Of a stretch of DNA of 42,851 nucleotides, positions 1 to 33,154 are shown one piece after another; position 1 is the first letter of the stretch, and the number at the start of each line of letters is the position of its first letter. The notes beneath the pieces were generated by a model. The model was not told where the DNA came from, made no database searches, and saw only the letters and a program-made list of their open reading frames with translations. A program made the position numbers and the translations under genes. Origin of the DNA: a virus (lineage: Duplodnaviria; Heunggongvirae; Uroviricota; Caudoviricetes); the IMG/VR virus record IMGVR_UViG_2875722834_000006; one strand, given 5' to 3'.

Positions 1-321
1 CTACATTACAGGCGATTTATCGTCTTTAACTTGGTTAAGTGTATGTGTAAGAACGCCGTGTACCGTTACGTCATTCAGAGCTTCCCCTTCTATCGCTTCA
101 CCATCTTCAGTGATCAGCGCGTGGCCCATTAGCTTCACGAACTGGTTTCTCCCGTCCATGCTAACCAGCAGCGTATCCCCTCCTTCTGGCTTCAGACTGA
201 CGTTAATAACGGCCCAGCCGCATGAAGTTTCAATAACCCGGCAGTTGTTATCTACACCGCAGATAACATCTATCGTCATGCGCTGCTCCTGGTAATCCAT
301 GGCTGGCGATGGAAATCCCAT
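1..321 (-). CDS. Hypothetical protein (106 aa), no family recognised
   Basis: Complete ORF; GGAGG-like RBS about 8 nt upstream of ATG at 321; stop at window edge. Confidence 0.4.
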   Translation of the reverse strand: MGFPSPAMDYQEQRMTIDVICGVDNNCRVIETSCGWAVINVSLKPEGGDTLLVSMDGRNQFVKLMGHALITEDGEAIEGEALNDVTVHGVLTHTLNQVKDDKSPVM

Positions 322-19193: not shown

Positions 19194-21323
19194 TTATTTC
19201 GGCAGGAGTTGCGATATTCGCTTACGTTTGACCGGCGCTGGTTCTTCAATAACCGCACCCGGCAGCTCGTAATTGATTTTTTCTTCCTGTCCAACTGGCG
19301 CTGGCAGGAACTTATCCGGATCGGCTTCGAGGTTGGCGGCCCGGACGTTGAGTTTTAACCCCATATGTTTGAGACCGCACAGCGCGGCATAGCTGTAAAC
19401 GAGGCAGTCAAGCGCTTCGTTAGCTCGTCCTGGTATTGCTTCCCAGATACTGTACCGCTGCCCGGAAATGACTTTGTAAACCAGTCGCTCCGCCAGCAGC
19501 TGATTGAAGTACCCGAGATCGCGATCGTCAGGAAAATGCATATAACCCGCAGCGGCGGCGCCAGGTTTGGGTGGCTCAAGATGCAGGCGACCGCGTATCA
19601 CGTCTTTCGCTGAGTTAACCCCCAGAATGACAGGGCGGAAACTGGCTTTGCTTTTCGATGATGGTCGTTTGGTCGGCCAGACAGGATTGCGTTTACCTCC
19701 CTGTGCAGACTCCCCCTTAATTGCCCAGACACGACGGCCAAGACGCTCTTTGGCGAATTCGTATACCTTCTGCGTATGGTGGCCACCGGAGTCCATGCAC
19801 GTTGCCATGATATTCAGGCCGCGCCCGTCACCACGTCGCCAGATCTGTTTCAGGTATGCATCCAGTCGCTTCCAGGGTTCTTCCGTCTCAAGGTCACCAT
19901 AAATAACGTCATGCGCGACCGACCACGATTCTTCATCTCTCCCCCAGCCGGTGATCGTAATTTCGAAGCGATCGTCCTGGGTATCAACTCCAGCTGTTAA
20001 CAATGCCACCCCGTCCGGAACGACGGCCGGAAATATTTCCCGGCGCGCCAGCAGAACATCAACAGGGAGCTGTTTCCCATGATTAGGTCGGTGCGGAAGC
20101 CCCATCTGGGTATTCCACCACGCCTGTTCCTTATCCGGATCGCCCTTCGCATCGATATATTTTTTCGCAATATCCGACGGCTTATCTTTTTGCCAGGGGC
20201 TGAAAAGCTTGGATGCCTGGTACCCCGCGTGGTGGTTATCGACTGCCTCCTTTCCACAGGAGGGGCAGATTGCGCGATAGACCGCATGCCGTTCCGACTC
20301 TGACCATTGCCAGACCTTTTCAACGCTGCCCTCGTCTGCCGCCCGCCAGGCAAGGTCATAATCCATCAGCGGTGAGTGCCGCTCCCCGCAGCACTCAAAT
20401 GGGCGCGTCTGATGCCATCGAATAGTTTGCAGAGCTCTGAGGCGCTGTCCTTCGGACCAGCCACTACCACAGCATTCGCAATAGAGCATCGCCGATTTAG
20501 TCAGGTGTTTATCTCCCTCTTTCGGCCACTGAACGTGTTTGAAAAAGTCGGGGAACTGGCGGTGGCCACAGTGCGGGCAAACCACAGATGCCCGGCGCTG
20601 ATCGGAGTCGGCGTAGCTGTCAGCAATGCGGCTCTCATCCTCCACCGTCGGCGAACAGGCGCGTACAGACAGCCAGGTCAGGCCAAATGTCGCTGTACGC
20701 TCTTCGGCCAGCGCAATTGGATCGCCTTCGCGGGTTATCGGGTACTTGTCCACTTCATCCGCCAGCAGGACACGAATCGGACGACGCGCAAGGTTATCAG
20801 GGCTACCAGCACCCGCCAGCGCCAGAAATCCGCCAGTGAACGCCTTGTAAAGAATGGTTTCTTTCGAGCTTTTCTGTTTCGAATCACCGATGATTTTACG
20901 CAGTACCGGCGTCACCCTTACCAGCGGGCTAATACGCTCTTTCGAAAACTGTTCAGCGGCTTCTTCTTTCGGCTGCAGCAGCAGTATCGGACAAGGATCG
21001 AGGTGGGCAAAATAGCCAAAAAGGTTTTCCAGCAGTGCTGTCTTCATCAACTGGGTACAGCACATTACAGTGATGATATGAACCCCGGACTCCGTCGCGG
21101 CAAGCATCGGTCCGCGGGCAATTTCTACCGTCGATGTTTCCCAGTTTCCCGAAGTGCTCCCAGCCTCTTTTGCCAGCTTACGATAGTCATCTGCCCACTG
21201 CGGCACACTGATACGCGGCGGGGGTGTCCAGCCTTTGCGGACGCTTAATTCAAGACGCTCAATCTTCTGCCGGGTTAAACTCTGGCTCTCCGAGGACTGA
21301 GATGTGTTTGTGGACATGTTCAA
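19194..21323 (-). CDS. Terminase large subunit (lambda gpA-like)
   Basis: 709-aa ORF directly downstream of small subunit, conserved cysteine-rich middle region and ATPase/nuclease size. Confidence 0.9.
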   Translation of the reverse strand: MNMSTNTSQSSESQSLTRQKIERLELSVRKGWTPPPRISVPQWADDYRKLAKEAGSTSGNWETSTVEIARGPMLAATESGVHIITVMCCTQLMKTALLENLFGYFAHLDPCPILLLQPKEEAAEQFSKERISPLVRVTPVLRKIIGDSKQKSSKETILYKAFTGGFLALAGAGSPDNLARRPIRVLLADEVDKYPITREGDPIALAEERTATFGLTWLSVRACSPTVEDESRIADSYADSDQRRASVVCPHCGHRQFPDFFKHVQWPKEGDKHLTKSAMLYCECCGSGWSEGQRLRALQTIRWHQTRPFECCGERHSPLMDYDLAWRAADEGSVEKVWQWSESERHAVYRAICPSCGKEAVDNHHAGYQASKLFSPWQKDKPSDIAKKYIDAKGDPDKEQAWWNTQMGLPHRPNHGKQLPVDVLLARREIFPAVVPDGVALLTAGVDTQDDRFEITITGWGRDEESWSVAHDVIYGDLETEEPWKRLDAYLKQIWRRGDGRGLNIMATCMDSGGHHTQKVYEFAKERLGRRVWAIKGESAQGGKRNPVWPTKRPSSKSKASFRPVILGVNSAKDVIRGRLHLEPPKPGAAAAGYMHFPDDRDLGYFNQLLAERLVYKVISGQRYSIWEAIPGRANEALDCLVYSYAALCGLKHMGLKLNVRAANLEADPDKFLPAPVGQEEKINYELPGAVIEEPAPVKRKRISQLLPK

Positions 21324-21828
21324 TCAGCACCTCTGTCATCCTGTCCGCCGGTACATCCAGATCAGCAGCCATTAGCGGCGCCACCCTGGACGGCCAGTTA
21401 AGCCAGGCATCACGCTGTTGGCGAAAGGCGTTGAATAAAACCTCCTCGGCTGCTGTCAGCTCAATAAGCTGGCCGCTGTCTTTTTCATACTGCAGCTTTG
21501 CCTGCAGGGCCATGTAATTCTCGCGGATACGTCCCGCTTCCTCTCTCGAAAGATCTGCCCCTTCAGTGAGCATTATCTGGCGGACAGTTTTATTGATTTC
21601 ATCACCGTCATCATCGTTATCGCTAACGACGGGAGTTTTCTTTTTCTTCGCGTTCGAGGCGCGCGGGTCTTTGCCATCGCGGTTTTTCTTCAATGCCGCA
21701 TCGCTGGCCTCTACGTCAATCAGGTCTCCGTCCATCACAATGAAGCGCCCGGCTTTAATCCACCGACCAATTGTTTTGCGATCCACACCTGAATGTTGTG
21801 CGTACTGACTCTGGTTCATCGTGGTCAT
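21259..21828 (-). CDS. Terminase small subunit (Nu1-like, N-terminal winged HTH)
   Basis: 189-aa ORF overlapping start of large subunit, N-terminal DNA-binding-like segment, adjacent to repeat array. Confidence 0.7.
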   Translation of the reverse strand: MTTMNQSQYAQHSGVDRKTIGRWIKAGRFIVMDGDLIDVEASDAALKKNRDGKDPRASNAKKKKTPVVSDNDDDGDEINKTVRQIMLTEGADLSREEAGRIRENYMALQAKLQYEKDSGQLIELTAAEEVLFNAFRQQRDAWLNWPSRVAPLMAADLDVPADRMTEVLIEHVHKHISVLGEPEFNPAED

Positions 21829-21976
21829 GGGACATCACCTGGGACATTTTCTGGGGTGGGACATTCGCCTGGGACATTTTTGCCATGTCCCACCAGAATG
21901 TCCCACTGGAATAAACTGGAATAGCCAGAGCTGGCGAGGTGTCCGTAATGATCGCCAGAGGTGGGACATGGGACAC
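21829..21976. promoter_or_regulatory. cosB-like array: 8 copies of GGGACAT(T) in direct and inverted orientation immediately upstream of Nu1-like gene
   Basis: GGGACAT at 21829, 21841, 21858, 21871, 21963, 21970 and inverted ATGTCCCAC at 21885 and 21898. Confidence 0.6.
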
Positions 21977-22067
21977 AAATCTGAAAGTTGTAGCTAGGAA
22001 AACACCGCGGCGCGCAATGCCCGTGCCTTACAAAAGGCTCAGGAAGGACCCAAAACCCCTGGGGGGG

Positions 22068-22721
22068 CTATCTGGCCGAGCTGATCGCCTCAGCAATCGC
22101 CTGGTGCAGCGCTGAGGGTAACAATGCGTTGGCCATGGTGTTTGCCCTGTCCATATAGCCGAGCGTTGGTTTGACTGGAAGCGCGTCTCCAAACCGAATA
22201 AGCAATTTTGGTGCAGGTTGCTTAATCTTGTCTCTGCGCGTGCCGTTCGGAGAACGTTTTGCCCGTTTCTTCCCTTTTTTGGTTTTCGGCTTTTTTCTCT
22301 GCCACACGGCATTCACGCCACCAACGTCACCAATAAATACGTTTGGCTTTGCTTTGAGCTGAGAGAGCTTATTACGCGGCAGGTTGCCGTATTTATTAAG
22401 CTTTATGTCTTTCGGGTTAAGCAAAGCACCACCATTAAGCTTGTGCGCTCCGCCGAACTCGAAGGGTTCAAGGTAGCCAGCAGCAGTATCACGAACAAAC
22501 ACCTTCGCACGAAGGCTGTTTTTCCTGGCACCAACTGACCCTACCGATTTAACTGTAAAAGGTGTTGGATTATCCAGATTCTGCTCAAATGCTGTTTTTT
22601 GGGCCGCTTCTATCTGGCGAACCACTTTAGTCATAGCCTGGGCAGTCGCAAACGGTATTTGCTTCTGCAGCTGTCTTAACTGACTGGAAAGGTCCTTAAG
22701 CGTTGCCATATCATTGACCAC
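22068..22721 (-). CDS. Hypothetical protein (217 aa) with Lys/Arg-rich segment
   Basis: ORF with AGGTGG RBS; located between lysis cassette and cos; no family recognised. Confidence 0.5.
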   Translation of the reverse strand: MVNDMATLKDLSSQLRQLQKQIPFATAQAMTKVVRQIEAAQKTAFEQNLDNPTPFTVKSVGSVGARKNSLRAKVFVRDTAAGYLEPFEFGGAHKLNGGALLNPKDIKLNKYGNLPRNKLSQLKAKPNVFIGDVGGVNAVWQRKKPKTKKGKKRAKRSPNGTRRDKIKQPAPKLLIRFGDALPVKPTLGYMDRANTMANALLPSALHQAIAEAISSAR

Positions 22722-22761
22722 CTAGTTACAGTAATTAAGATCAGTTTGCTCATAAAGTTGA

Positions 22762-22786
22762 CAATAAAAAACCGCCCGTAGGCGGT
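22762..22786 (-). terminator. Intrinsic terminator (ACCGCC-CGTA-GGCGGT plus U-tract on minus strand)
   Basis: Stem 22771-22776/22781-22786 followed by T-run on minus strand, overlapping stop of 22786..23190. Confidence 0.6.
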
Positions 22787-23190
22787 TAGTCGAACATTTT
22801 ATCAAGTTGCTTAGCAAGAGCTCGGTTAAACAGCTCCTTCGAAACTGTCATCAGCGTGCCCATACTGGCATCTTTGAATCCGGTTTTTAATGTTGCCCAA
22901 ACCTCTTTGTTACGGAGAGCATCCAAGAAGTCATGCCCCATCGCGGTCAATCGCAAGGGCATTACAGCCCAGTGAGTCATTCCGTCTAAAGACTGAATAG
23001 CACCAAAGCCGGGCTCTCCATCACTCCTGATAATCAGCCCTCTATCCTCAAGCAAACGCATATGAAACACAAATGTGTCAGTTTCACAATTGAACCCTAA
23101 ATCATTTAATCGAATAATATCGGTATCAGGTGAATCCGATGCCTCGAAAGCCTCGAGCAAACCTTTAAGGTATTCTTGATCTATTTGCAT
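22786..23190 (-). CDS. Hypothetical protein (134 aa), low-GC cargo-like gene (possibly DUF2513-like)
   Basis: ORF with about 37-40% GC in sampled stretch versus about 55-60% in structural genes; own terminator. Confidence 0.5.
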   Translation of the reverse strand: MQIDQEYLKGLLEAFEASDSPDTDIIRLNDLGFNCETDTFVFHMRLLEDRGLIIRSDGEPGFGAIQSLDGMTHWAVMPLRLTAMGHDFLDALRNKEVWATLKTGFKDASMGTLMTVSKELFNRALAKQLDKMFD

Positions 23191-24587: not shown

Positions 24588-25640
24588 TTATTCCCCTGTT
24601 AACGCCCTTATTTCCCCCACCGTCTGGCTAAACCTGTCCTTCTCGAGTTCAACGCCGATAGCCTGGCGGCCAAGTTCCAGCGCGATTTTCACGGTCGAAC
24701 CGGACCCCATAAAGAAATCAGCCACCACATCACCAGGCTTACTGCTGGCGTTGATGATCTGCCGCAACATGTCAGCGGGTTTTTCGCATGGGTGTTTACC
24801 TGGGTAAAACTGAACGGGTTTATGTGTCCAGACGTCGGTATAAGGAACGGATACGGAAACAGAGAAATGCCGCCGAAGCGATTTGTACTCTTCGAGCAGC
24901 TCTGAATACTTGCGATTTAACGAATGCCACATAGCCACCAGCTGGTGGTGTGGTGTTGCCAGTTCGCCGTTCTGGTGCTTTTCGATGGCTACCTGCGTGA
25001 AAAGGGACTGAAGCTTCCGGTAGTCTGATTCATTCGGTAATTGCCACTGGCTACCGCTGAACCAGTGAGACACCATGTTCTTCTTTCCAGTCGCATCGGC
25101 TATTTGTTTTGAGGTTATGCCAAGCGCTTCACGTGCATCCCGGAAATAAGAAATTAGGGGAGTCATTACATGCTGCTTCAGCTCGCTTCCCTTCTCAGCG
25201 TACCCGTCGCTCTTTGGTTTATACGGCCCCTGGTAATGCTCAGCGAACAGGATGCGCTCTGTTGCAGGGAAGTAAGAGCGCAGGCTCTCTTTATTACAGC
25301 CATTCCAGCGGCCCGACGGTTTAGCCCAGATGATGTGGTTCAGGACGTTGAACCGCTCACGCATCATGATCTCAATGTCTGCCGCCAGACGGTGACCTGA
25401 GAAAAGATAAAGACTGCCGGCAGGTTTAAGCACTCGCCAGAATTGTGCGAGGCACATATCAAGCCAGCGAAGATAATCCTCATCCCCTTTCCATTGATTG
25501 TCCCAGCCGTTGGGTTTCACTTTGAAGTACGGCGGATCCGTGACTATCAGGTCAATGAAGTTATCAGGGAGAGTTGCGATGTATTGCAGGCTATCAGCGT
25601 TGACTAACTCAACACTGTTTATATTTACAGTATTTTTCAT
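24588..25640 (-). CDS. DNA N6-adenine (or N4-cytosine) methyltransferase, beta class
   Basis: DPPY motif near N-terminus (VTDPPYF) and AdoMet motif FxGxG near C-terminus (DFFMGSGST). Confidence 0.8.
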   Translation of the reverse strand: MKNTVNINSVELVNADSLQYIATLPDNFIDLIVTDPPYFKVKPNGWDNQWKGDEDYLRWLDMCLAQFWRVLKPAGSLYLFSGHRLAADIEIMMRERFNVLNHIIWAKPSGRWNGCNKESLRSYFPATERILFAEHYQGPYKPKSDGYAEKGSELKQHVMTPLISYFRDAREALGITSKQIADATGKKNMVSHWFSGSQWQLPNESDYRKLQSLFTQVAIEKHQNGELATPHHQLVAMWHSLNRKYSELLEEYKSLRRHFSVSVSVPYTDVWTHKPVQFYPGKHPCEKPADMLRQIINASSKPGDVVADFFMGSGSTVKIALELGRQAIGVELEKDRFSQTVGEIRALTGE

Positions 25641-29889: not shown

Positions 29890-31827
29890 TCAGGCGGCTG
29901 CACCCGCCTTTTGATTTGCACATAATTCAGGAAGATTTGCTTCTACCAGCGCACGAGCGAACGGCGGCGGTACTGCGTTACCACAGCGCGCTACCTGCTT
30001 GTCTTTGGCGTAACGATTGCCGCGATAGTCCTGATCGATAACGTAGCCGTCAGGGAAGCCCTGCGCCTTATAAAGCTCATGCGGTTGCAGCATGCGCATT
30101 CCGATATCGACGATCTGGTACTTAACCCCCTCGATCGTCACCAGCCATTCATCCTCGCTATCACCGCAGTAGGTTTCGAGGAATGTCCGGACCTCGCCAA
30201 CGTGCTGGCCACCAGCGGTAATCGTCGGCATAGGTGTATCCATGGTCTGACCGTCGCGGCAGGTTCCGCGCAGCTTCACCAGGTGCGACGCAACTACCGC
30301 GTGGTGATCAACAGTAGTGACTGAGTGGGCAGGCTCATCCATACCAACACCCGGCCCCGTGTAATTCCCACCATAGTGCTTCGCCAGGAACGCGCTCACC
30401 GTTGCAAACTTATTACCACCAGCAGTGACCGTGCCGAGCGGGTTATTCAGTTGAAGAACACGCGGTTCTTGCCCTGGGCGTTCGCCGTACCCCATCTGGA
30501 TCAGTGTTGGAGTTACCAGCTGCGACTTACCGCCACCACCTGCAGTAATCGTCGCACTCGGTTCGTCAGCCCTGTGCCCAACACTGGCTCCAAACTGGCG
30601 GGCGATGACCGGCGCAACCACGCACGCGCGGGACTGCTTGAGGATTGTATGAGCGGGTTTATCCAGCGGGCGCGGCTTTGCCTGGTACTCACTGCCGCCA
30701 TTGCCAGCCAGGAACGGTGTCAGGGCGGCCTCAACTACGCCAAGCGCATGCCCATTCCCGCCCGGGCGCGCCGACGTACCAGCGGTGACAGTTGGTACCG
30801 GCTCGGTCACTGGCTGCCCGGTGGCCCCGGTGCGGAATTTAGTAAGATGCGGTACCGCCAGTGCGTAGCCATGCTTTTTAGTGATGGTCTGCAATGGCTC
30901 TAACAACGATTGCCCGCGGAAACAGTCATAACCTCCTTTCGTCGTGGTGTGGTTACACTTCACGATGAAAGGTGATGCGCTTTCGATAACAAAGCGCTGG
31001 ATGCCGCGCGCGATACGTTTGAGCGTATTTTCCGCCAGCGGCTTTTTGCGGTCGAAGATGGACCGGGCCGGGATATTCCAGTCAATGCACTCCGCCGCGG
31101 TACGCCATGGCGCCAGCTTGCCGCTTTGTACTTCCAGTGATTTTGGATCCCCATGAGTCGCTTCAGGCCAATGAATCTTGCGGCCGTCACAGCGCATGAC
31201 CATGAAGAAACGCTTTCTGATCGTCGGCGCGCCGTAGTCACATGCGCGCAGCTCCCGATAATCAACCTCATAACCAAGCCCGGCGATCAGCTGTTGCGCC
31301 TGCTGGCCGTGCGGCTCAATGGCAAGGAATTCACAAACCTCAGCCAGCGCAGGGTGATTCGCCGCGATCCCCGTCGACAGCATGCCGACAAATGCCTCGA
31401 ATGTTTCGCCAGCACGCTCAGGATCTGGGCGTAATTCTTCATCCAGCAGCGGGCCCCATGTCTTAAACTCTTCGACGTTCTCCAGCATCATGACGCGGGG
31501 ACGTACTGCCAGCGCCCAGCGCAGGACAATCCACGCCAGCCCGCGAATCTCTTTCTTAACCGGCTTAGCGCCCTTCGCCTTGGAAAAGTGGCGGCAGTCA
31601 GGGCTAAACCAGGCCAGACCGACAGGTTTACCGCTGGTGGCTGCGCTTGGGTCAACGTCAAACACCGACTCGCAATAATGCAGCGTGTCAGGGTGATTCG
31701 TCTTATGCATCGCAATAGCGTTTTCGTCGTGGTTGATAGCGATATCCACGCTACGCCCGATCGCCAGTTCAATGCCGGTACTCGCGCCGCCGCCACCAGC
31801 AAAGTTATCAACGATAATTTCACGCAT
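29890..31827 (-). CDS. DNA (cytosine-5)-methyltransferase with extended, internally repeated variable region
   Basis: Motif I FAGGGG, PC motif (SPDCRHFS), ENV (MLENVEEF), motif VIII (YGAPTIRKRFFMV), motif X (GNAVPPP); four T(I/V)TAGG-containing modules between VIII and IX. Confidence 0.85.
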   Translation of the reverse strand: MREIIVDNFAGGGGASTGIELAIGRSVDIAINHDENAIAMHKTNHPDTLHYCESVFDVDPSAATSGKPVGLAWFSPDCRHFSKAKGAKPVKKEIRGLAWIVLRWALAVRPRVMMLENVEEFKTWGPLLDEELRPDPERAGETFEAFVGMLSTGIAANHPALAEVCEFLAIEPHGQQAQQLIAGLGYEVDYRELRACDYGAPTIRKRFFMVMRCDGRKIHWPEATHGDPKSLEVQSGKLAPWRTAAECIDWNIPARSIFDRKKPLAENTLKRIARGIQRFVIESASPFIVKCNHTTTKGGYDCFRGQSLLEPLQTITKKHGYALAVPHLTKFRTGATGQPVTEPVPTVTAGTSARPGGNGHALGVVEAALTPFLAGNGGSEYQAKPRPLDKPAHTILKQSRACVVAPVIARQFGASVGHRADEPSATITAGGGGKSQLVTPTLIQMGYGERPGQEPRVLQLNNPLGTVTAGGNKFATVSAFLAKHYGGNYTGPGVGMDEPAHSVTTVDHHAVVASHLVKLRGTCRDGQTMDTPMPTITAGGQHVGEVRTFLETYCGDSEDEWLVTIEGVKYQIVDIGMRMLQPHELYKAQGFPDGYVIDQDYRGNRYAKDKQVARCGNAVPPPFARALVEANLPELCANQKAGAAA

Positions 31828-33154
31828 TGACGGCCCCCTGCATGCTGTTGAAGAGACCACCAGCGGTCGTGATAATTTCACTCGTCGGCATACGTTCGAG
31901 CCACAGCTGGTTGATATTGGCTTTCAGCTTGTTCTGCTGCGAAACAGGTAGAGCGTCAGCCCCTTCAATCTGGTTAAACACCAGTCCAACCTCAAGAGGC
32001 CAAACGCGCGATTCGTTTAACGCCTTGTCCTTTGATTCCTGCGTCTCACGGACATGGGCGCGGATCCCCCGAATATTTGACCATTTGGCTTTATCCAGGC
32101 TTTCCATGGTCGCGATGAATTCACTGTGGTTAATGCCGTATTCTTTCGCAGACTCAACGGCAACCGTGCGTAACCGCTCTGACATGTCTTGTTTCACGTC
32201 ATCGCTATCAAAGGGCAATGTTTCCAGCCATGCATTAACACCCACCAGGATGCTCTCGCTGATCAGCTTTTTCGCTCTGTCGATCGTCAGCGGTGAAACA
32301 TTGGTAAATTCAGGGTTTTCCAGAGAGTCGGCAGCCCAGGTATGACCAAACTTTGACTCGCTGAAGGTGTACTCGTCTTTCTTGCCGAACGCCGCGACAA
32401 CACAGGCCCAAGCCTCTACACCGCTGGTTTCCAGAATGGCTTTTTGGGTTAATGGCAGTTCTGCCTCTGATTTCTCCGGCACTACCTCAGCGTCCAGCTC
32501 CGGCGCCGCATCAGTTTGCGTTCTTCCCACGGCAAATTGGGCCAGCGACATCGCAGCACGGCCTTTGGCCTCCAGGTCGGTGCGGTTGATGTAACTGAAA
32601 CGCTCACCCCGCCATGTTTTGTCGAAGACCACGATAGCGCCAGCAAAAAATGCGCTGGTGGGCTGCTGCTTTTCGTCTTTCGGCACGAACCATGTAGGAA
32701 GATCGAAACCAATTCGGCCACGGATGAATGTGACGTGATCTGCCTCTACCGGCCACCACGTTTCACTCGTCGCAGACTTAATGAGAAAAACGTACCGACC
32801 ACCCTTTTCTCGCATGGCCATAGCGTGGTTAATGATGTGGGTCATTCCGGTAACGGCCTGCTTGTCGTGGTACTGAGAGCGGCTGTAAGGCGGGTTGCCA
32901 AACCCGGCACCACCGAGTTCTGCCAGCCGCTCTGACCAATCCTGCATCAGGGCATTATCTTCAGCCGTGTACCATGCTGGGCACTTCGCGTTGCTGTCGT
33001 CGGCAAAAAGGTCCAACACCAGAGGGCCGAACATCGCATTGATCCCCCAAAACAACAGATCCGGAGTGCGCCATTGATCACCGACCTCTTTCAACTCGTG
33101 TGCTGGTTTTGAACGGAGTTCAGCCAGTGCACGGCAGTATTTATTTTCCATCAT
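31820..33154 (-). CDS. Phage-type DNA N6-adenine methyltransferase (Dam family) with about 250-aa C-terminal extension of unknown function
   Basis: N-terminal DQWRTPDLLF and NPPYS motifs characteristic of phage Dam family; long uncharacterised C-terminal half. Confidence 0.7.
   Translation of the reverse strand: MMENKYCRALAELRSKPAHELKEVGDQWRTPDLLFWGINAMFGPLVLDLFADDSNAKCPAWYTAEDNALMQDWSERLAELGGAGFGNPPYSRSQYHDKQAVTGMTHIINHAMAMREKGGRYVFLIKSATSETWWPVEADHVTFIRGRIGFDLPTWFVPKDEKQQPTSAFFAGAIVVFDKTWRGERFSYINRTDLEAKGRAAMSLAQFAVGRTQTDAAPELDAEVVPEKSEAELPLTQKAILETSGVEAWACVVAAFGKKDEYTFSESKFGHTWAADSLENPEFTNVSPLTIDRAKKLISESILVGVNAWLETLPFDSDDVKQDMSERLRTVAVESAKEYGINHSEFIATMESLDKAKWSNIRGIRAHVRETQESKDKALNESRVWPLEVGLVFNQIEGADALPVSQQNKLKANINQLWLERMPTSEIITTAGGLFNSMQGAVNA

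Follow-up and report, generated by a model that had tools for sequence, protein, structure and literature searches.

Background

In phage lambda, cosQ is a highly conserved 7-bp site that is required for the termination of packaging (PMC4669245), and I2 (about bp 18–50), which lies between cosN and cosB, is likewise conserved and required for termination (PMC4669245, PMC4856287). The R3 site of cosB is found at bp 50–65 in lambda and at bp 48–60 in N15; in lambda R2 has the opposite orientation to R3 and R1, the ATG of Nu1 is at bp 191 and the distance between cosN and R3 is critical (PMC9026076). An IHF site in cosB is not universal, as N15 is without one (PMC4669245). Across lambda, 21, N15 and Monarch, packaging specificity resides in cosB and in the N-terminal winged helix-turn-helix (wHTH) domain of the small terminase subunit (TerS), with cosQ and cosN being common to the different specificities (PMC4669245, PMC9026076). 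Feiss et al. use the term 'lambda-like phages' for those with a 12-nt 5' overhang closely similar to GGGCGGCGACCT (PMC4669245). In the Serratia phage vB_SspM_BZS1 (MT843275; henceforth BZS1) the overhang is GCATTGCGCGCC: PhageTerm gave these 5' cohesive ends from virion reads, and a comparison of the phage-end sequences with a prophage PCR product served as a check (PMC7556043).

The stretch of DNA analysed here (the window) comprises 42,851 nucleotides of a virus assigned to the Caudoviricetes. An earlier note, made from its letters alone, had pointed to a dense array of GGGACAT repeats at the terminase boundary as a candidate cosB, with a GC-rich candidate cosN beyond it. Our sequence comparisons lead us to regard 21828..22051 as probably the cos site of an integrated temperate myovirus with a lambda-type (gpA/Nu1-type) terminase. 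Along the minus strand its parts come in the order cosQ (GGGTCCT), cosN, an I2-like block and cosB, followed by terS and terL.

Results and discussion

The prophage and the genes around the candidate cos site

The genes and the gap that frame the region are the following:

19194..21323, minus strand: terL, gpA-type large terminase subunit, 709 aa (Pfam GpA_ATPase, 2.2e-64; GpA_nuclease, 2.1e-78)
21259..21828, minus strand: terS, small terminase subunit, 189 aa (phrog_57 'terminase small subunit', E = 4.6e-36)
21829..22067: intergenic gap with the repeats, 239 bp, between the 217-aa ORF and terS
22068..22721, minus strand: 217-aa ORF (phrog_1924 'minor tail protein'; without a Pfam match)

E. 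coli chromosomes match the window at 100% identity, and the prophage is carried by 60 of 5426 complete genomes (~1%). Its gene set includes an integrase, a CI-like repressor, lysis genes, terminase, portal, protease, capsid, sheath and tape measure. The portal, protease, major capsid, tail sheath and tape measure genes are situated downstream of terL, and the CI-like repressor and integrase at the far end of the window; upstream on the minus strand there are the 217-aa ORF, a DUF2513 ORF, Rz-like, lysozyme-like and holin-sized ORFs (these three kinds being assigned by eye) and a DNA methyltransferase. This gene content suggests that the window is a complete-looking integrated temperate myovirus. 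The position of the integrase gene (41658..), the tail genes toward coordinate 1 and cos near 22 kb bear out the earlier proposal that the element is integrated and that cos lies internally. There are three separate DNA methyltransferase-like genes (24588..25640, 29890..31881 and 31820..33154, all on the minus strand), one of which also matches a PAPS-reductase-like PHROG.

The large terminase subunit encoded just downstream of cos is of the gpA family, with both the ATPase and the gpA nuclease domains, and is 49% identical to that of BZS1 and 90% identical to that of the Klebsiella relative L126. The mechanically called terL ORF starts with a TTG at 21323, and the gene calls of the Klebsiella relative begin two codons later (MSTN...); judged from the sequence, the true start is likely the ATG at 21317, and terL overlaps the end of terS with either start. 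The 217-aa ORF is directly upstream of cos and distant from the tail gene block. Its homologs in BZS1 (p72) and in the Citrobacter rodentium phage phiNP (029) occupy the same place near the right genome end, and its 'minor tail protein' label looks doubtful.

A megablast search of the phage collection with 21200..22800 recovered no match and hence no cultured close relative there, and no cultured phage in the collection carries the terS of the window, the best tblastn match being 33.6% identical. That no cultured phage in the collection matches the prophage would fit a relic, i.e. a prophage that is defective or no longer inducible, with a cos that is intact but unused. However, the gene set looks complete, from integrase through tape measure, and the subsites of cos are intact and, in many hosts, evidently kept so by purifying selection, making such a relic an unlikely explanation.

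Candidate cosQ, cosN and the I2-like block

We numbered base pairs from the predicted left end, with bp 1 corresponding to window position 22020. The features of the candidate cos site are:

22040..22051, minus strand: cosQ-like element GGGTCCTTCCTG, with its core GGGTCCT at 22051..22045
22009..22020, minus strand: cosN, with a predicted 12-nt 5' cohesive end GCATTGCGCGCC, identical to the BZS1 overhang
22021/22020 (minus strand) and 22008/22009 (plus strand): predicted nicks
21977..22008, minus strand: I2-like conserved block GCGGTGTTTTCCTAGCTACAACTTTCAGATTTG, between cosN and the first repeats
21962..21976, plus strand: cosN-proximal repeat pair TGGGACAT + GGGACAC, R3-equivalent, bp 45–59
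21906..21961, strand not assigned: variable spacer from the proximal to the distal repeats
21885..21892 and 21898..21905, minus strand: two inverted repeats, R2-equivalent, bp 116–136
21828..21877, plus strand: four direct repeats, R1-equivalent, starting at 21828, 21840, 21857 and 21870, bp 144–193
bp 193 from the nick: terS ATG

On the minus strand the candidate cosN reads CACGG, followed by GCATTGCGCGCC and GCGG; over a longer stretch, GGGTCCTTCCTGAGCCTTTTGTAAGGCACGG is followed by GCATTGCGCGCC and this by GCGGTGTTTTCCTAGCTACAACTTTCAGATTTG. The overhang is that of BZS1, with the flanks and the cosQ word conserved, and the 14-mer GGGCATTGCGCGCC has a single occurrence in the window. The GC-rich segment that had been proposed as cosN (about 22005..22030) contains the 12-nt overhang sequence of BZS1, and the proposal can be sharpened to 22009..22020, which on this match is very probably the cosN of the prophage. 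When the literature was searched for the overhang sequence, the BZS1 paper was the only relevant match. Among the IMG/VR contigs scanned none ends exactly at cosN, and the contigs therefore give no independent evidence for the physical ends.

The GGGTCCT core begins 31 nt upstream of the predicted top-strand nick. The cosQ-like element is invariant in 14 class-A1 relatives and also in an alignment of lambda, BZS1, the Klebsiella relative L126 and the window; a conserved 7-bp element is found about 30 nt before the nick. The lambda right end is ...GGGTCCTttccggtgatccgacaggttacg, and GGGTCCT starts there 30 nt before the nick. We take the lambda GGGTCCT at 48473–48479 to be cosQ, a position reportedly due to Wieczorek and Feiss (2001). 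The I2-like block is kept across the repeat classes described below and is partly shared with lambda bp 13–45.

Arrays of TerS-binding repeats are also known at the pac sites of headful phages, and the repeats of the window could in principle belong to such a site, where they would recruit TerS for imprecise cutting and give rise to permuted genomes. Three features make this very unlikely: TerL is of the gpA type with a gpA nuclease domain, a lambda-type cosQ is present, and in the relative BZS1 the identical sequence gives defined cohesive ends with 12-nt 5' overhangs (PMC7556043).

The repeat array and the layout of the probable cosB

GGGACAT occurs 9 times in the window, 7 of these being exact copies within 21829..21969 (at 21829, 21841, 21858, 21871 and 21963 on the plus strand and at 21885 and 21898 on the minus strand); an eighth copy, at 21970..21976, is the variant GGGACAC. 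The earlier count of eight copies in 150 bp was thus right about the density of the array and wrong in treating all eight as identical. The core shared by the eight is the 8-mer TGGGACAY, and all 8 of its occurrences in the window fall within 21828..21976 (149 bp), with six in one orientation and two (21885 and 21898) inverted, in keeping with the direct and inverted copies reported before. The number expected by chance in 149 bp is 0.0093, which corresponds to a P of ~1e-21 for the given span and of ~6e-17 after allowing for all positions. The largest TGGGACAY cluster in 300 shuffles had 2 members, and elsewhere in the window no 7-mer is present more than 5 times in any 150-bp span. As also noted earlier, the array begins at the terS start codon: the minus-strand ATG (21828..21826) abuts the first repeat, the T at 21828 being common to both. 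The short length of the word might suggest a functionless low-complexity product of chance or slippage, but this reading is effectively refuted by footprint and statistics, with a P of about 1e-17 or lower, words that are conserved while the spacers diverge across 16 species, and a whole-word replacement that keeps the layout in Klebsiella L126–L128 (see below).

Between cosN and terS the eight 8-bp copies form 2+2(inverted)+4 short sites, the first lying near bp 50 and one set being inverted. The positions mirror the R3-I1-R2(inverted)-R1 series of lambda, suggesting that the layout is that of the lambda 'complex cosB' with 2, 2 and 4 short sites. The last direct repeat abuts the terS ATG, and a Shine-Dalgarno sequence, AGGTGA, sits between the last two repeats. 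The inverted pair together with the next two direct copies makes up an inverted repeat with 22-nt arms. The fold of cosB as single-strand DNA gave z = -3.5, and we set aside the predicted hairpin as a signal of its own, given that it reflects the inverted candidate binding sites. An RNA-leader reading was also dropped, as an Rfam scan of 21600..22300 gave one spurious miRNA match (E = 0.2).

The IHF consensus WATCAANNNNTTR had no match in 21829..22067 with up to 1 mismatch allowed, and the layout is accordingly that of a complex cosB lacking a recognizable IHF site (I1) between R3 and R2. The sequence ACTGGAATA occurs twice, 10 bp apart, at 21905..21923 on the plus strand, adjoining the inverted pair, with its first base outside the spacer span; on the minus strand the double block reads TATTCCAGTTTATTCCAGT. 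The TTTATTCCAGT block is kept in all close relatives, and the rest of the spacer varies freely. The double ACTGGAATA block is without a match to the IHF consensus and may serve as a site for a host factor or provide an additional contact for TerS.

The TerS protein and the start of its gene

The terS gene, assigned to phrog_57, lies between cos and terL. Pfam returned no match for it, and thus no Nu1, nor for the upstream 217-aa ORF. In a BLASTP comparison with lambda Nu1 the HTH region alone aligned (E = 0.043), and a PDB sequence search with TerS retrieved only spurious RecA-fusion and ATPase matches. An AlphaFold2 model of moderate quality (overall pLDDT 67.5; ~78 for the N-terminal domain) shows an N-terminal strand-helix-helix-hairpin-helix domain, a disordered linker at 54–75 and a helical C-terminal part, and residues about 3–50 are predicted from it to form a wHTH. 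A Foldseek search of the PDB with the full model yielded no significant match; the best local matches, themselves non-significant, were to wHTH domains of the Xis/BldC/MerR type, among them the gpNu1 DNA-binding domain 1J9I (TMt 0.52) and the TerS chain of 6HN7. The epithet 'Nu1-like' that had been given to this protein is reasonable for the position of its gene and its predicted fold class, but it does not extend to the sequence, where similarity is confined to the HTH match.

The homologs of this TerS family (P0001–P0120) have no Pfam domain and are called 'hypothetical protein' in almost all NCBI/RefSeq records, a label that is also found on the terS of the E. coli genomes carrying the prophage. 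In one IMG/VR relative (L030) the last repeat is mutated (ATGCCCC), with a GTG replacing the first ATG, and a second in-frame ATG (MNQ...) is kept without change throughout the family. The Shine-Dalgarno sequence favours the first ATG as the true terS start.

Conservation of the site in relatives

We scanned viral contigs for GGGCATTGCGCGCC, which gave 120 stretches, and took the ~58 with GGGTCC upstream as true cos homologs. The combination of GGGCATTGCGCGCC and an upstream GGGTCC is common to more than 50 viral contigs, and every one that is read through then has a terS-like ORF. Little or no change is seen in cosQ, cosN and the eight repeats among 14 non-identical close relatives, the four direct R1-equivalent repeats being near-invariant, whereas the spacers vary freely, above all at bp 60–100. 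A blastn search of phages with the 91-nt cos core recovered phiNP alone, a search in which phages with records ending at cos are missed (short queries being split).

Scanning one genome per species, we found this cos class in 16 species, including members of Kluyvera, Raoultella, Salmonella, Hafnia, Yersinia, Rahnella, Ewingella, Morganella, Photorhabdus and Xenorhabdus. All 16 have the proximal pair at bp 46/47 and 53/54, followed by up to 3 inverted copies and 2–5 direct copies. One to three inverted copies are found at the R2 position in the long-cosB relatives, L133 being the one with none. A repeat abuts the terS ATG in 15 of the 16 species, the exception being L140. The spacers are unalignable between the 16-species groups, yet the words persist. 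Enterobacterales-type cos and terS sequences are also seen in a record titled Vagococcus sp. WN89Y (L129), labelled as a Firmicute, and in one titled Martelella alba (L136), labelled as an alphaproteobacterium, and the TerS N-terminal domain of the former is 98% identical to that of the window, which suggests that these two assemblies are contaminated or mislabelled.

The repeat word and the TerS N-terminal domain

For 50 non-redundant loci sharing the cosQ and cosN of the window we counted the 7-mer found at bp 45–48 within 450 bp. This 7-mer recurs 5–10 times in 48 of the 50, with a mean count of 7.1 vs 1.6 for control words from bp 14–27. The start of the first repeat pair is fixed at bp 45–48 in all 50, whatever the word. 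The words and the corresponding motifs in the TerS HTH are:

TGTCCCA: TerS HTH [DN]RKT[IV]xRW, 18 non-redundant loci
GGTAACA: TerS HTH SRKTVTxW, 21 non-redundant loci
GGTAACG: TerS HTH SKKTVTxW, 2 non-redundant loci
GGTTTCA: TerS HTH SHTAVSKW, 1 non-redundant locus
GTTCGCA / TGTTCGC: TerS HTH SDTLVR[KR]A, 7 non-redundant loci
TGTCCGC: TerS HTH DEKQVRRA, 1 non-redundant locus

The word tracks the N-terminal HTH domain of TerS, and not its C-terminal part or TerL. Within the TGTCCCA class the identity of the TerS N-terminal domain is at least 57%, as against at most 53% for GGTAACA. In terms of TerL, TGTCCCA words pair with proteins that are 87–100%, about 76% and about 47% identical to that of the window, and GGTAACA words with proteins that are 41–49%, 60%, 75% and 90% identical to it; both words are thus found on window-like and on BZS1-like TerL backbones, and all four combinations exist.

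The Klebsiella relatives L126–L128 are natural chimeras. Their TerL is 90% identical to that of the window, their cos core is 95–100% identical, and their TerS is 85–95% identical from about 21460 downstream; from 21972 to ~21480, identity is at the random level. Only cosB and the first ~350 nt of terS have been exchanged. The swapped stretch has a class-B N-terminal domain and the word GGTAACA, again arranged as 2+2(inverted)+4 and reaching the ATG with its last copy. Natural terminase chimeras are also seen in L049 and L064, in addition to 2700..3600 of L126. They have a class-B TerS N-terminal domain and a GGTAACA cosB on a window-like TerS C-terminus and TerL (74–90% identity), with recombination joints just past the I2-like block and about 350 nt into terS.

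As cosB and the 5' end of terS are adjacent, linkage alone could yield some of this covariation, and part of their co-inheritance is, on the sequences compared, probably simple linkage rather than proof of binding. The Klebsiella chimeras and the reassortment with TerL weaken this objection, since they indicate that the word follows the TerS N-terminal domain through several independent recombination events. The original proposal that the array is cosB is supported by the pair at the R3 position, by repeats that are conserved while spacers drift and by words that are swapped together with the TerS N-terminal domain, and we accordingly consider it likely that the eight repeats are TerS sites.

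In the short-cosB relatives (218..310 of BZS1, L001; L002, L012, L013 and others), in which the terS ATG is at bp 75, there are 5–7 further GGTAACA/TGTTACC copies inside the terS ORF, mostly 12 nt apart and in the part coding for the linker. The rR2 site of N15, located inside its terS gene, resembles these in-ORF repeats.

We also considered the possibility that the repeats are operators for terS and terL, bound by TerS or another regulator, rather than a packaging site. A repeat is found next to the start codon in every class, in the window the last repeat abuts the ATG with the Shine-Dalgarno sequence between the last two repeats, and the predicted Xis/MerR-type fold of the TerS N-terminal domain is one that regulators use too. 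On the other hand, the first pair is fixed at bp 45–48 from cosN in all classes, at the R3 position of lambda and N15, and the distal copies inside the terS ORF of the short-cosB relatives would be oddly placed as operators. A scan of 21600..22300 detected neither sigma-70 promoter-like nor terminator-like sites, and a promoter role for the repeats was dropped on this account. Taken together these observations render the operator explanation improbable. Given the ATG-adjacent repeat in every class, TerS autoregulation may be a second function beside packaging.

Proposed function in packaging

Under the favoured reading as a cos site, and by analogy with lambda, the N-terminal wHTH domains of TerS would bind the eight TGGGACAY sites, and the proximal pair at bp 45–59 would anchor TerL over cosN. 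TerL would then nick the two strands 12 nt apart to produce 5'-GCATTGCGCGCC overhangs. The terminase complex is expected to stay on the cosB-bearing end, such that packaging would run through terS and terL and go on into the genes for head and tail. Termination would take place at the following cos of the concatemer, under the direction of cosQ, cosN and I2. The repeat word would set the packaging specificity, matched to the recognition helix of TerS, which here is [D/N]RKT[I/V]xRW.

A more speculative reading, which we regard as possible rather than probable, is that cosB and the TerS N-terminal domain constitute a mobile specificity cassette that is swapped among terminase backbones keeping one cosQ/cosN core. 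This would result in at least 6 mutually exclusive packaging specificities among the prophages of Enterobacterales and other proteobacteria. In the long form found in the window, the eight 2+2(inverted)+4 sites might support a higher-order TerS-DNA assembly without IHF, and the ATG-adjacent copy might let TerS repress its own translation.

The analysis provides precise predicted virion DNA ends and a packaging signal for a prophage group carried by ~1% of the complete genomes of E. coli and also by many other members of the Enterobacterales. The relatives offer a natural series in which one cutting and one termination site are combined with at least 6 repeat words, each paired with a distinct TerS recognition helix. 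These word-helix pairs are reassorted across terminase backbones, which extends the packaging-specificity picture drawn from lambda, 21 and N15. They could be used to examine how TerS recognizes its DNA, to predict the terminase by which a given co-resident prophage or satellite can be packaged, and to design cosmid-like vectors.

Comparison with known systems

BZS1 was found by tblastn with TerS, among relatives of ~33% identity. Its record starts 74 nt before terS, with nt 1–12 annotated as cosL. Its 12-nt 5' overhang, GCATTGCGCGCC, is identical to the one predicted here, and the flanks (CACGG on the left and GCG... on the right) are kept; its right end, ...GGGTCCTTCCctgcacttttgtaaagCACGG, and its left-end flank align to the window on both sides. 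The cosQ word GGGTCCTTCC and the I2-like CTAGCTA..TTTGAAATTTG block are also conserved, and terS follows cos. In contrast, the repeat word of BZS1 is GGTAACA and not TGGGACAT, the window using TGGGACAY. The cosB of BZS1 is short, with three copies and the terS ATG at bp 75, and further copies are present in the terS ORF at bp 218–310. Between its TerS and that of the window the N-terminal domains are ~50% identical, and no C-terminal similarity was detected. The phage phiNP (OR565852) shares with the window cosQ, cosN and the I2 core upstream of terS, as well as a homolog of the upstream ORF, but its repeat word is of the GGTAACA class and its cosB is short, and its record is circular, with no mapped ends.

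With lambda the candidate site shares the subsite order cosQ-cosN-I2-cosB, the location of GGGTCCT (30 nt before the nick in lambda vs 31 here) and that of the terS ATG (bp 191 vs bp 193). A 12-nt 5' extension is predicted here as the overhang, and is followed by an I2-like T-tract block; the first TerS site is near bp 50 and the middle set is inverted. However, eight 8-bp sites (2+2+4) take the place of the three 16-bp R sequences of lambda, the spacer of the window has no IHF consensus with up to 1 mismatch, and TerS is barely alignable to Nu1. The prophage of the window also has a contractile tail (a sheath gene is present), unlike lambda. The twofold symmetry of cosN is 6 of 16 bp in the window by our own count, as against 10 of 16 in lambda (PMC9026076). 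The overhang GCATTGCGCGCC matches that of lambda, GGGCGGCGACCT, at 5 of 12 positions, and by the cohesive-end criterion of Feiss et al. the phage of the window is, on its predicted overhang, not 'lambda-like'.

The kind of element is already known, and the exact overhang is known from BZS1. In the literature that we searched, the repeat class, the 2+2+4 layout and the combination of one cosQ/cosN core with several reassorting modules of cosB and TerS N-terminal domain appear to be undescribed. The covariation of word and domain seen across these modules is the natural counterpart of the hybrid experiments with lambda, 21 and N15 (PMC4669245).
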